A stretch of DNA of 64,000 nt from an uncultured bacterium (GTDB lineage: Bacteria > Verrucomicrobiota > Verrucomicrobiia > Verrucomicrobiales > DEV007): assembly GCA_963977015.1 (NCBI GenBank), contig CAXBMO010000002.1, positions 288,001 to 352,000 on the forward strand, given 5' to 3'. This document shows positions 23,774 through 27,818 of this stretch, piece by piece. The notes under the pieces are model-generated. The model saw nothing but the letters and a program-made list of their open reading frames with translations, made no database searches and was not told the DNA's origin. The stretch's first letter is position 1. Every line of letters begins with the position of its first letter. Made by a program: the position numbers and the translations under genes.

Positions 23774-26719
23774 ATGCAATTCCTCAATCCATGGCTCGCG
23801 TTCGGCCTTTTGGCGGTTTCGATCCCCATCATTATCCATATTCTCACGAGGCAAACCGGCAAAACAGTAGATTGGGGTGCCATTTTGTTTCTGCGGGATT
23901 CGATGGTGATTCGCAACCGGAGAATCCGGCTCGAGGAAGCGCTCTTGATGGCCGCCCGTTGCCTCCTCCTGGCACTGCTTGCCATGGCATTGGCCCGCCC
24001 CTTCATTCCACCGGGCTCCAATACACCGTGGTTCGCGGTTCTCCCGCTCTTTTTCTTCGGCGTGGTTTGCCTGGGAATTGGCGTCGTCCTTTGGGATTTG
24101 GTGAAGTGGCGTTGGATTCTGCTCCTGTCTGGCACAGCAGCGCTGCTTCTGTGTGTCACCCTGGTCTGGTTTGAGAAAGTCTTCAATCTCAGCCGATTCA
24201 GCAAAGGAGGACGTCAGGACATCGCCTTGATTGTCGATGCCTCGACTTCGATGGCGCTCAATTATGACGGTCAGAGCAATTTCCAGCGCGGTCTGGATGA
24301 AGTCCGCACGATCGTGAAACGCAGCCCTCGAGGAAACTCGTTCAGCCTCATCCTCGGCGGCCCCACTCCTTCCGCTCGAATTCTGACGCCAACTTCAGAT
24401 CGCGAGTTTATTCTTCAACAACTGGATGACATCAAACCGCTCGAAGGTGGCATGGCGGCCTACGATTGCCTGACCCTGGCTTCGCTGGGGCTGGCACAAG
24501 GGAGCAATCCGGCAAAGCAGATCGTCGTGATTACCGACGGCCAGAATGTCGGTTGGGAAACCAACAAACCCGGGCGGTGGGCCTTTTTGAAGGATGCATT
24601 TGAGAATCTTCCATCTACTCCGCAGGTGATCGTCCGCGAAATGCCTCTCCCTTCGCACTTCCGCAACGTCTCCCTCGCTGACATTTCCTTCTCGCGCGAC
24701 ATTGTTGGGGTCGATCGTCCCGTCAAAATTTCCGTCACGATCGAAAACACCGGCACGGAGGCGGTTTCGCCGCGGCAAGTTGAGCTTGAGGTGGATGGAA
24801 AGAACCTGGTCGACCAAACGCTGGGCCAAATGATGCCGGGCAGTAAGGAGACGCTCCACTTTACCCATCAGTTTGAATACCCGGGAGCCCACGAGATTCG
24901 TTCCCAGGTGTTCGTCGATGACGAAATTGAGCAGGACAACACCTCGACCAGCGCTCTCAACATTGTTCGGAAACTTCGGGTTCTTTTGGTGGATGGAAAC
25001 GCCGGTGCTCGCTTCTTTGACCGGGCTACCTCCTTCGCCGCGCTGGCCCTTGCGCCGGGAACCACAATCACCGCACCTGGCGCCGATCCCAACAGTGAGG
25101 AAACCATGCGTTTCCTGGTCGATCCCGAGATGGTTTCCGCGATCGATCTGACACAAATGCCTTCCCTCACCCAGTATGACGCGGTGATCCTGGCAGACAT
25201 CCCGCGAATGCCGCGGGAAGTTGCGGAAGGGCTGGAACTTTTCGTCAATCAAGGCGGTGGGTTGCTCATTGCGGCGGGTCCACGCGCTTCGAGCGAATTC
25301 TACAATTCCTGGGTTTCCAGTGACGGCCTCCCCGTCATGCCGGCACGATTGGTGGAACCGGTTGTCCCCAATCCAAACACCGATCCCATCACGGCTTCAC
25401 TTGAGACGTTTCGCCATCCCTCCGTTCGCGTGGTCGCCAATCGCAGAGAAAGTGATCTCGAGACCGGAAGTTTTGCCCACTACTGGAAGTTGAAAGAGAA
25501 TACGGGCATCGATGCGATCGTCGGAGGTCGCCTCAACAATGGAGATCCCTATCTCACCGCTCGTAAGCTCGGCCTTGGAAATCTCGTGCTGCTAGGCTCC
25601 TCTCTGGATCTGAGATCCGGCAATCTCCCAAGTCGCCAGGCTTTCGTGCCCTTCATTCACGAACTCGTCTATTTCCTGGCGAACCCTGGCAATTTTAATC
25701 TCAACCTCGCACCAAAATGGGAACTCGCCCTCCATCTGGCGGGCAACGAACACGCCTTTTCAGGCCATGGGCTGCGCGGAGAATATTTCGCCAACCGAGG
25801 CGATCGTGAACCCAAAGTCACGCGGATTGATCCTGCGATTCAGTTCAACTGGCGCGGCGGGAGCCCGGCATCCGGGATTCCCCAGGACAACTTCAAGATC
25901 CGGTGGACGGGCAGAATCCAGGCTCCCCGCTCGGCAAAGTACAAATTCAGGGCCGAGGCCGACGACTTCCTCACCGTTTACATCGACGGGCGGGATGTGC
26001 TCCGCGCCGAATATGGAAAGTCGCCTCGCGTTCGCGAAGTCTGGCTCGATGCCAATCGCCTGCACGACATCCGGATTGAGTTTCAGGAAGGCACCAGCAA
26101 CGCCCAGGCCGTCCTCTATTGGGAATGCAAAGATCTCCAACGCCAGATCGTTCCGACGTCTGCCTTCCGCTCAGTAACCGGTTCGGAAGAAGACGTCATT
26201 GCCACCTACCGCGTCACCGGTCCCAGCGGCGAAAAACGAGTCGCCAAGATCGAGGCAACGGCCGGAGGAGCCGTCGCGAAAATCCAGGGAGATGTCGCGG
26301 CGGGAACCTACCAGATTCACATTCCTGATGATCAGCGCGAGAAGTTCAACGAATTGCTGGGCGACGACCGGGACACGATCCCGTTTACGGTGAAACGCGA
26401 CCCCGCCGAAAGCCGGCTTCAGCCCCTCACCAACGCAGATAAGGAATTTCTCGCCAACTACGTGGGATTGGTCGAGCCGCAGACTCCCGAGGACGTCATC
26501 TCGATTTTGAACGGAAAGTCTTTTGGAGAGGAGTTGTGGAAGTATCTCGCCCTCGCGGCCCTTTTCTTCCTGCTCCTGGAGGTGGGTTTGTCACGCTGGA
26601 TTGCGACGTCCCGGCAAATGGCGCAGGATCAACGGATCAAGTTCGATACAACGGAAGCCCCAGGGAATGGGTTTGAGAAGCAACTCAAGCAGGTCAAAAA
26701 GAAGGCAGCCGCTGCCTAA
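23774..26719 (+). CDS. BatA-domain/vWA membrane protein with CARDB-like and PA14 domains
   Basis: MQFLNP..PIIIHIL; MIDAS motif DASTSM and ITDGQ; GLRGEYF...IDPAIQFNW...NFKIRWTG (PA14); C-terminal ELWKYL TM. Confidence 0.85.
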   Translation: MQFLNPWLAFGLLAVSIPIIIHILTRQTGKTVDWGAILFLRDSMVIRNRRIRLEEALLMAARCLLLALLAMALARPFIPPGSNTPWFAVLPLFFFGVVCLGIGVVLWDLVKWRWILLLSGTAALLLCVTLVWFEKVFNLSRFSKGGRQDIALIVDASTSMALNYDGQSNFQRGLDEVRTIVKRSPRGNSFSLILGGPTPSARILTPTSDREFILQQLDDIKPLEGGMAAYDCLTLASLGLAQGSNPAKQIVVITDGQNVGWETNKPGRWAFLKDAFENLPSTPQVIVREMPLPSHFRNVSLADISFSRDIVGVDRPVKISVTIENTGTEAVSPRQVELEVDGKNLVDQTLGQMMPGSKETLHFTHQFEYPGAHEIRSQVFVDDEIEQDNTSTSALNIVRKLRVLLVDGNAGARFFDRATSFAALALAPGTTITAPGADPNSEETMRFLVDPEMVSAIDLTQMPSLTQYDAVILADIPRMPREVAEGLELFVNQGGGLLIAAGPRASSEFYNSWVSSDGLPVMPARLVEPVVPNPNTDPITASLETFRHPSVRVVANRRESDLETGSFAHYWKLKENTGIDAIVGGRLNNGDPYLTARKLGLGNLVLLGSSLDLRSGNLPSRQAFVPFIHELVYFLANPGNFNLNLAPKWELALHLAGNEHAFSGHGLRGEYFANRGDREPKVTRIDPAIQFNWRGGSPASGIPQDNFKIRWTGRIQAPRSAKYKFRAEADDFLTVYIDGRDVLRAEYGKSPRVREVWLDANRLHDIRIEFQEGTSNAQAVLYWECKDLQRQIVPTSAFRSVTGSEEDVIATYRVTGPSGEKRVAKIEATAGGAVAKIQGDVAAGTYQIHIPDDQREKFNELLGDDRDTIPFTVKRDPAESRLQPLTNADKEFLANYVGLVEPQTPEDVISILNGKSFGEELWKYLALAALFFLLLEVGLSRWIATSRQMAQDQRIKFDTTEAPGNGFEKQLKQVKKKAAAA

Positions 26720-26791
26720 CAGCAGAACGTCTCGCCAGAGAAGATTCAGAAGAGTAAACGGTCAATATTTTTAAAATATCAACTTTTGCTG

Positions 26792-26819
26792 TTGAACTGT
26801 TCAAAAGAACACTTACAAT
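26792..26819 (+). promoter_or_regulatory. sigma70-type promoter of a small, apparently leaderless ORF
   Basis: TTGAAC(26792-97)-16nt-TACAAT(26814-19); ATG begins at 26826. Confidence 0.7.
26798..26811. promoter_or_regulatory. LexA (SOS) box 1, Verrucomicrobia type
   Basis: TGTTC-AAAA-GAACA, a perfect match to TGTTC-N4-GAACA, lying between the -35 and -10 elements. Confidence 0.8.
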
Positions 26820-26832
26820 GTTCTCATGAACA
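26819..26832. promoter_or_regulatory. LexA (SOS) box 2, Verrucomicrobia type
   Basis: TGTTC-TCAT-GAACA, a perfect match overlapping the predicted +1 and the ATG. Confidence 0.8.
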
Positions 26833-26993
26833 GCACTTCGTCCCAACAGATACCTCAAGTGTCCGATCGAATCCAGTCACTTTTTCAGGACGCCAAACGC
26901 TATCGGAACGCTCGAAAGGTGAGGCAGCGCAATGAGCAGCCCCTCAGTTGCGAGCAACAGCTTCAACTGACTCTGAAGGCGTCGTCAAACTAA
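26826..26993 (+). CDS. Unannotated 55-aa protein, probably SOS-regulated
   Basis: Translated by hand: MNSTSSQQIPQVSDRIQSLFQDAKRYRNARKVRQRNEQPLSCEQQLQLTLKASSN; own promoter and downstream hairpin; below the ORF-track length cutoff. Confidence 0.65.
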   Translation: MNSTSSQQIPQVSDRIQSLFQDAKRYRNARKVRQRNEQPLSCEQQLQLTLKASSN

Positions 26994-27066
26994 GCAATTT
27001 CAAGAATTTCCAGGGTAGAACCGGTGCGTGGTTCTTGGTGTGTCCTGGGTAGAGCAAACAACTGTG

Positions 27067-27130
27067 ATCGCCCGTTTTCCTGAACTCCTTTTTCTTCATT
27101 GGAGGAGTTTGGGAGACGGGCGATTTCCTT
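27067..27130 (+). terminator. Long hairpin, probably terminating the small-ORF transcript (possibly bidirectional)
   Basis: ATCGCCCGTTTTCCTGAACTCCT pairs with AGGAGTTTGGGAGACGGGCGAT, with G-U pairs on the + strand. Confidence 0.65.
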
Positions 27131-27146
27131 GTCCCATGAGCCGCCG

Positions 27147-27818
27147 CTAATCGCAGTTCAAAAGTTCGTCCCAAGCATGGATGATGCGCTCCTCTTTAAC
27201 CAAGATGTGCTCGCACATCCGTTTTTGGGCGAGATCAGAGTCCCGTGCCGCAATCGCGTCCACGATTTCCAGATGTTCGCGAGAGATGTCCTCCGGATTG
27301 GTGCAGGAATGGAGATCGATTCCGTAGAAATAGGGCTGATTGTCCTGATCCAACGTCGTCACGACGATTTTTTCGAGAATCTCATTTTGAGCCGCCCGCG
27401 CGATGAGGTGATGAAATTCCCGGTTCACCCGAATGCATTCCAGAGCATCCACTTCCGGATCATCATGTTCAGGAACAAACGGAGCTGCAATTCTGAGCTT
27501 CTCGATATCCTTGAGCGTTGCCCGCTGAGCTGCCAATCCAGCAATCTGGCCTTCCACCAATCTTCGCGCTTCGCAAACCACCTTGAATCGGTCCAACGTC
27601 AACTCGGGAACGCGATAGCCCTTGTTTGGAATCTGATCCAGAATATGCTCGTGAGCCAGGCGGGTCAGAGCTTCGCGAAGGCTGGCCCGGGAGACGTTCA
27701 ACTCTTCACAAATCGTCTTTTCGATAAGACGTTCCCCCGGTTTAAAGTCACAGGTCAGGACACGCTGACGAATTACATCTGCAATTTGGTCGGTAATTTT
27801 GATGGGACGGATAGACAT
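27147..27818 (-). CDS. GntR (FadR/FCD) family regulator
   Basis: PGERLIE...LNVSRASLREAL; NREFHHLI; EHLEIVDAI. Confidence 0.92.
   Translation of the reverse strand: MSIRPIKITDQIADVIRQRVLTCDFKPGERLIEKTICEELNVSRASLREALTRLAHEHILDQIPNKGYRVPELTLDRFKVVCEARRLVEGQIAGLAAQRATLKDIEKLRIAAPFVPEHDDPEVDALECIRVNREFHHLIARAAQNEILEKIVVTTLDQDNQPYFYGIDLHSCTNPEDISREHLEIVDAIAARDSDLAQKRMCEHILVKEERIIHAWDELLNCD

Follow-up and report, generated by a model that had tools for sequence, protein, structure and literature searches.

A candidate LexA-controlled microprotein family of Verrucomicrobiales with a predicted DnaN clamp-binding motif

A leaderless reading frame of 55 codons, lying under two perfect LexA boxes in the window (the whole 64-kb stretch of DNA analysed here), is almost certainly a real gene and very probably repressed by LexA. 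As established from its sequence, it encodes a basic, non-membrane peptide of 55 residues, whose tail carries a beta-clamp-binding motif; judging from this motif and a complex model, the peptide quite likely binds the pocket of the DnaN clamp. Together with its relatives it forms an unnamed LexA-boxed microprotein family whose sole constant is the clamp motif, pointing to a small SOS effector with a new target. That it serves as a stand-alone late-SOS clamp ligand, mainly a competitor or brake, is a reading to which we give about even chances. The features of the locus are as follows (window coordinates).

23774-26719, + strand: upstream neighbour, a BatA/VWA/PA14 gene
26792..26797, + strand: -35 hexamer TTGAAC, from a sigma70-like promoter scan
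26798..26811, strandless: LexA box 1, perfect, inside the promoter spacer, from a palindrome search
26814..26819, + strand: -10 hexamer TACAAT, from the promoter scan, conserved in the genus
26819..26832, strandless: LexA box 2, perfect, 21 bp past box 1, from the palindrome search
26826..26993, + strand: leaderless 55-codon ORF, ATG at 26826, TAA ending at 26993, single copy in the genome
26850..26933, + strand: predicted amphipathic cationic helix, residues 9-36, from AlphaFold2, hydrophobic moment and alignment
26958..26975, + strand: predicted hexameric beta-clamp-binding motif QLQLTL, residues 45-50, from alignment and complex model
27010..27048, + strand: 3' untranslated element with a short stem, conserved in 4/4 genus genomes
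27066..27125, + strand: long hairpin, fold z = -6.5, the small gene's probable terminator
27147-27818, - strand: convergent neighbour, a GntR/FCD gene

Re-reading the sequence placed the promoter, both boxes, the ATG, the 55-codon frame and the hairpin where an earlier note on this DNA had put them, including the distance of 6 nt between the end of TACAAT (26819) and the ATG (26826). That note had also seen no Shine-Dalgarno sequence, and we found no such word either at the locus or in 59/59 relatives tested. The sigma70-like promoter is the sole match in 26600-27300 (shuffles gave 0.3 ± 0.5), and a TTG-led hexamer is retained at the -35 place in the promoters of peptide families A, which includes the window peptide, and B. 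Box 2 overlaps the -10 hexamer and the start, its right half-site supplying the Met-Asn codons. The gene stands alone: its neighbours are unrelated large genes that differ between genera, and gntR was seen beside it in 3 genus genomes only.

The frame evolves as a protein-coding sequence. Relative to the closest relative, changes at codon positions 1, 2 and 3 number 6, 2 and 30; synonymous changes have reached saturation. Of 27 pairs, dN/dS was computable for 17 and never exceeded 0.24. The 55-codon frame is open in 15/15 genes, the other five in 0-3. Selection thus acts at the level of the protein, as the proposal of a microprotein had it. The earlier note reckoned with an sRNA in case the boxes were conserved and the frame was not; what we find is conservation of frame, start, boxes and leaderless layout alike.

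The note's author could not place the peptide in a family, and searches of Pfam, NCBIfam, PHROGs and PDB left it without a match above cut-off. Rfam returned nothing above threshold and one sub-threshold microRNA-hairpin match. Protein searches yielded 21 and 8 homologues of 46-93 residues; since the 8-protein search had no length limit, we can say that no fused form was seen. All named homologues are labelled 'hypothetical' and derive from Verrucomicrobiales or soil metagenome. The exact 55-residue protein is absent from a 15-billion-protein collection and present letter for letter in the ESM Atlas, where the best feature score was 0.83, below the useful mark, with nothing usable for P0071.

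Downstream, the hairpin described in the earlier note is real (27066-27125, z = -6.5). It is kept in 4/4 genus genomes, one of them with different neighbours, and 10 of its 28 predicted pairs show compensatory changes among these four. It is the probable terminator of the small gene and may double as that of the convergent gntR. Between stop codon and terminator, the four genus genomes preserve the 27010-27048 element better than their synonymous sites, which might point to a regulatory site or to a piece of a 3'-derived RNA.

We then considered the boxes. Erill et al. 2016 reportedly gave TGTTC-N4-GAACA as the LexA motif of Verrucomicrobia, and their regulon has the same box and the same core targets as the window genome. 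The two palindromes at the locus are perfect, as had been claimed, and are the sole perfect ones in the 64-kb window. Over the 6.89 Mb genome, 8 perfect boxes were observed and 6.8 are expected by chance, so that the count by itself proves nothing. The chance of two perfect boxes within 30 bp, however, is about 2e-4, and the window locus is the sole site in the genome with two. Perfect boxes also lie 19-33 nt upstream of lexA (PF01726, E 2e-20; box 27 nt ahead of the start), imuA-imuB and an splB-like radical-SAM gene, the names imuA, imuB and splB-like having been assigned by reading the sequences. Of the remaining three, one falls in a spacer on the rpoA side, another inside a transporter gene and the third in a spacer of the rRNA region; those before rpoA (C13:124228) and in the rRNA region (C33:1686) may be chance.

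The earlier note had proposed confirming lexA and looking for the motif at recA and lexA. The lexA gene is present with a perfect box in its own promoter; recA of the window genome has a 2-mismatch box, as does dnaE2; a topoisomerase-like gene has a box with 1 mismatch. The units imuA-imuB (C8:231490-233706) and dnaE2 (C17:67592-70774) are two, each boxed separately. Genomes elsewhere in the order carry this box ahead of lexA, recA, dinB, dnaE2, imuA and ssb. Because the boxes sit at lexA, imuAB and other SOS genes, we take TGTTC-N4-GAACA to act as the LexA operator.

The association of the box with the small gene extends to its relatives. A box with ≤1 mismatch lies at -80..+10 in 57/59 relatives as against 0/169 control windows, and one with ≤2 mismatches in 59/59 as against 3/169; the 15 family A genes among these relatives were found via the protein alone. 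All 15 of the latter have a box within 80 nt (10 of them perfect), and 13 have two. In family C the box lies within 80 nt in 28/28 genes, 27 of them at ≤1 mismatch, with the start taken as the ATG nearest the boxes. The box spans the ATG in 7/15 family A and 16/16 family B genes.

Two other boxed arrangements came to light. In several family genomes a transposase-like gene with a zinc-finger start has a perfect LexA box directly ahead of its ATG (L189, L190, L193, L197, L209, L210, L212, L222, L230), which suggests SOS-controlled mobile elements. In Stappia (L120, L129, L134, L142, L148), a look-alike double palindrome with the ATG inside precedes a DeoR-type regulator gene and is probably that regulator's own operator, not a LexA site.

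To define the distribution of family A, we searched 134 genomes of the window's own taxonomic family with a 24-sequence profile, counting matches at E ≤3e-14 and leaving out 11 at E ≥1.5e-4. Clear matches occur in 15/134 genomes from 7 genera. We also scanned GTDB genomes at the DNA level only, for two boxes with an ATG within the second, which gave 42 loci. All 17 Verrucomicrobia-labelled loci encode a 50-59-residue ORF with the motif, as against 0 of the 25 others; of 20,000 genome positions drawn at random, 3 were followed by an ORF of this kind. Four of the 17 are family A. The other 13 constitute family B, whose bodies are not alignable to the window peptide and whose members end in QQEFxF; it is found in 16/134 genomes of the taxonomic family, none of them with a clear family A match. 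The profiles of A and B align only at the motif (hhalign probability 0.4%). The same large gene lies directly downstream of two A genes, of 7/7 B loci tested and of one further gene, and since both families sit directly upstream of it, we regard A and B as positional orthologues. Upstream of homologues of this syntenic gene, a perfect box is present in 3 of 40 regions, and in all three a new motif ORF follows it; the other 37 have no box at ≤1 mismatch, many probably belonging to a paralogue. In one family B subgroup (L116, L117, L132, L152) a run of cysteines precedes the helix, possibly for metal or redox sensing.

Searching 401 genomes of the order for a pattern of box plus -10 hexamer produced 118 rows, and we read 90 loci covering 99 of them: 6 lead into a short motif ORF, 4 of these new. 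Two pattern loci seeded family C, which matches 69/117 genomes of taxonomic family f5 at E ≤0.05. Of 30 loci read, 28 are 57-92-residue ORFs with QLE[LF]x[LF]; 41 weaker places were left out. The alignment of A with C extends across 47 columns at 85% probability (E 6e-6); that of B with C is weak (47%). Family C comprises 82 database proteins, including WP_184340549.1 of Prosthecobacter vanneervenii, annotated 'hypothetical'. In the window's own taxonomic family, such genes occur in at least 37/134 genomes, 15 of them with A, 16 with B and 6 with single finds; a joint A+C profile on 95 family genomes added one member (L364 of G007) among 15 weak matches read.

Elsewhere the yield was low, and such patchy occurrence is a point against the reading as a clamp ligand. 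The family's largest genus (g2) gave 0/58 genomes with profiles A2 and A6, and in the 5 genomes of taxonomic family f2 no such gene was seen beside perfect boxes (35/39 sites read). Beyond the own family, profile A1 matched nothing better than noise in 401 genomes of the phylum (best E 0.002; 0/29 non-self loci with the anatomy), and profile A9 yielded, on 251 genomes of the class, three clear matches, all in f5, with seven weak ones left out. Viral contigs gave 10 pattern matches and 0 confirmed; searches there, outside the order and in g2 and f2 would miss divergent forms. Of 58 candidates on metagenome contigs one was confirmed (L156), with a protein identical to the window's. Among sequencing runs, none of RNA was listed as containing the gene, an outcome that speaks neither for nor against its expression.

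The peptide itself is simple in build. AlphaFold2 predicts a single helix at residues 9-36 (mean pLDDT 73.9) and an extended tail; the hydrophobic moment of the helix is 0.52. In an alignment of 27 sequences, conservation falls into two blocks. One is a helix face (R15, L19, F20, A23), in which L19, F20 and A23 are invariant; the other is Q45-L50, in which Q45 and L48 are invariant and L50 is present in at least 90%. The earlier note had drawn an analogy with small LexA-repressed toxins and division inhibitors. Our results lend it no support as regards a membrane toxin or division inhibitor: no transmembrane segment is found, the maximal 19-residue hydropathy being 0.79 in A (27 homologues), 1.01 in C and 1.57 in B, and the invariant clamp motif points to replication, not to the membrane or the divisome.

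The tail matches the hexapeptide clamp motif (bioRxiv 10.64898/2026.05.27.728225; PMC3716654, in the portions of both available), which the accessible text of the former gives as Q-aliphatic-x-L-x-L for Pol IV and Hda. The motif falls outside the predicted helix and occurs in 27/27 family A members, 0-7 residues from the C-terminus. In the form Q[LMQ][EQ][LF]x[LFI] it is found in 68/68 aligned members of families A, B and C, a count that for C is partly circular because the search profile was motif-dominated. Among the long ORFs of the window genome, 9 of 9,944 end in a clamp motif by our first pattern; MutS, RNase HII and the SplB-like protein are among the nine. The last residues of DinB read QLELEI, and ImuB carries QFQLF. 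We also came across two related ORFs of 150-180 residues ending in the clamp-type motif QLELRF, with no box evident upstream (C2:379130-379675, +; C5:243390-243848, -), and a leucine-dehydrogenase-like ORF (C1:563299-564525, +) ending in the clamp motif QLDLF, unexpected for a metabolic enzyme.

Three other assignments for the peptide were considered and rejected. One made it the supplier of a motif missing from ImuB, which however has QFQLF. Another took IQSLF for a second clamp motif, but its position 1 is not Gln and the complex model does not place it. The third was that of a RecA-NT motif protein: this motif is a helix ending in a conserved glycine and followed by a strand, according to the available part of PMC6511836, and our alignment is without the glycine and gave no DUF4113 match and no match to the genome's own RecA or ImuB.

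To examine how the tail might meet its target, we modelled the peptide (27-row alignment) with the genome's own DnaN (29 rows). The model scored 0.77 versus 0.01 for the best control, a pass that may reflect memory of solved complexes; the score mark is reached by 116/157 solved and 2/215 mismatched pairs, an approximate calibration given that our own alignments were supplied. Runs share at least 78% of contacts, and the partner pLDDT is no lower than 55. In the model DnaN is contacted by residues 41-53 alone, which leaves residues 1-40 free. The modelled DnaN side comprises 171-176, 239-246, 276-279, 317-319, 343-345 and 357-365, at the pocket of domains II and III, going by the residue mapping to the E. 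coli clamp. Q45 is placed on the C-terminal strand of DnaN and L48 inside the pocket, an arrangement described for two clamp subsites in the accessible part of PMC3716654. Since many clamp-peptide complexes are solved, the model speaks for likeness and not for binding, and its score carries no information on affinity. Some clamps, such as that of B. subtilis in the available text of bioRxiv 10.64898/2026.05.27.728225, hold hexapeptide motifs 10-20-fold less tightly.

Two observations concern DnaN itself. Position 174 of DnaN (C1:143840-144934, L079), inside the pocket, is Arg in 90% or more of the 29 sequences from the phylum and His in two solved clamps, a difference that counts, like the weaker hold on hexapeptides, against the clamp reading. 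In the model this Arg abuts motif position 3, and position 3 is Glu in most family members. A second clamp-like ORF on contig C14 (L078:238-1785, -; 515 residues, PF00712 E 7e-8) has a long basic tail and possibly lies on a mobile element.

These results allow a mechanism to be sketched. With the boxes spaced by 21 bp, a LexA dimer on each would together cover the spacer, the -10 hexamer and the start, so that the leaderless mRNA would be made only after strong LexA cleavage; double-operator repression of this kind would give late and strong induction. The QLxLxL tail would then occupy the clamp pocket, which is common to Pol III, DinB, ImuB and MutS. Because the peptide has no catalytic domain, it would work by occupancy of the pocket, in competition with Pol III, translesion polymerases and repair factors. 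The last step is the least certain: the peptide might slow or displace the replicative polymerase, or ration access to the clamp among polymerases during damage. Its fast-evolving amphipathic helix may provide a second grip, on DNA, on itself or on a partner. Fork slowing and the ranking of polymerases on the clamp during damage are explained mostly by competition between polymerases. A precedent for such slowing is Pol II, which slows forks in vitro via clamp competition, according to the accessible part of PMC12448304.

In family A the helix face with L19, F20 and A23 does not vary, which hints at a specific second partner and would suit an adaptor as well as a competitor. The tail of an adaptor would grip the clamp while its helix brings to the fork a factor for repair, translesion synthesis or proteolysis, which would agree with the two-module build, the separate conservation of the helix face in the 27 sequences and a complex model that leaves residues 1-40 free. 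We nevertheless hold this to be unlikely, if worth serious attention, as the helix is not kept across positional orthologues (the A and B profiles align at only 0.4% probability), the obvious clients own motifs (QFQLF in ImuB, QLELEI in DinB) and no linkage to repair genes appeared among the neighbours scanned. The cationic amphipathic helix could alternatively, by virtue of its physical character, tether the peptide to the inner membrane or DNA, either sequestering clamps away from forks or pinning them. All three groups do have a basic amphipathic segment, of unrelated sequence, with median moments of 0.48-0.53 versus a background median of 0.35 and a net charge of +5 to +6. Among windows from ordinary proteins, however, such moments rank at about the 90-95th percentile; they beat shuffles in 21/27 A, 2/13 B and 11/28 C members, and family A helices are low in mean hydrophobicity (0.2), so we consider a tether improbable.

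The clamp motif is short, and its likeness could be accidental in a LexA-controlled microprotein with another target, for instance a LexA co-repressor, a RecA modulator or a division inhibitor. Small SOS proteins of such kinds are known, among them the co-repressors GIL01 gp7 and DdrR in the portions of the literature available. Yet the motif is the sole feature kept across bodies that cannot be aligned, the glycine and strand of RecA-NT as well as profile matches to the own RecA or ImuB were not found, and the peptide has no transmembrane segment; another target thus seems to us distinctly unlikely, slightly less so than a tether. Finally, conservation of the 3' element and hairpin in the genus would agree with a functional RNA, and the look-alike palindromes ahead of DeoR-type genes in Stappia with boxes of another regulator, such as the neighbouring GntR or one of DeoR/GlpR type. 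Against an RNA stand saturated synonymous sites with residues kept, the absence of a special fold in the 5' part of the coding RNA (z 0.69) and of an Rfam match above threshold; against another regulator, gntR adjoins in only 3 genus genomes and the box tracks lexA, recA and imuA. We regard both as very improbable.

On the preferred reading, that of a clamp ligand, the LexA-boxed clamp-motif microproteins are possibly a new class. To our knowledge, the known SOS checkpoint proteins act on cell division. A bolder version, to which we give somewhat less than even chances, is that an overlooked class of bacterial LexA-controlled stand-alone clamp microproteins serves as a replication checkpoint, a counterpart of p21, with the three Verrucomicrobiales groups as members; the bodies would evolve so fast that only operator and clamp motif identify them. 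In the literature within our scope, which leaves most subscription papers and Erill 2016 outside, we found nothing on the family or on a LexA-controlled stand-alone clamp peptide. If true, a damage-induced peptide dedicated to the clamp pocket would add a further level of control, and fork slowing and polymerase ranking could be studied through one small gene; Prosthecobacter vanneervenii (WP_184340549.1) offers a cultured host for the related group. The combination of operator, motif and synteny finds such genes where sequence search fails, and the family would be a source of natural ligands for this pocket, which is under study as a target of antibacterials.

Among known systems, the closest in motif are E. 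coli Pol IV (QLVLGL), Hda (QLSLPL) and Pol III alpha with its C-terminal motif, which, in the portions of the sources available, have motifs of the same class at or near the C-terminus. Their pocket is the one predicted for the peptide, and Pol IV is SOS-induced too; these clients, however, are enzymes or large regulators, whereas in the microprotein, a peptide of 46-92 residues, the motif is nearly the whole conserved content and there is no catalytic domain. SulA, YneA, SosA, SidA, TisB and DinQ are likewise small, tightly LexA-repressed and stand-alone, but they target division or the membrane, in contrast to a peptide with a clamp motif and no transmembrane segment. SocB of Caulobacter SocAB and RipA of pneumococcal RipAB act via the hydrophobic pocket of DnaN, according to the accessible parts of PMC12795458 and PMC9690074. 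Family searches and description set the microprotein apart from both: they belong to toxin-antitoxin pairs, and no conserved antitoxin-like gene was seen beside the microprotein, whose neighbours are unrelated large genes differing among genera, a comparison that would miss an RNA antitoxin; SocB triggers SOS, whereas the microprotein would be an SOS output via its LexA boxes. The nearest functional parallels may be the damage-induced p21 and the archaeal TIP, which belong to other domains of life and use the PIP motif, so that homology is not expected. As the available part of PMC6204406 describes them, p21 of eukaryotes and TIP of Thermococcus kodakarensis are small proteins with a short motif for binding the clamp, which they obstruct or change; TIP, too, combines its motif with an amphipathic helix, which follows the motif there and precedes it in the microprotein.
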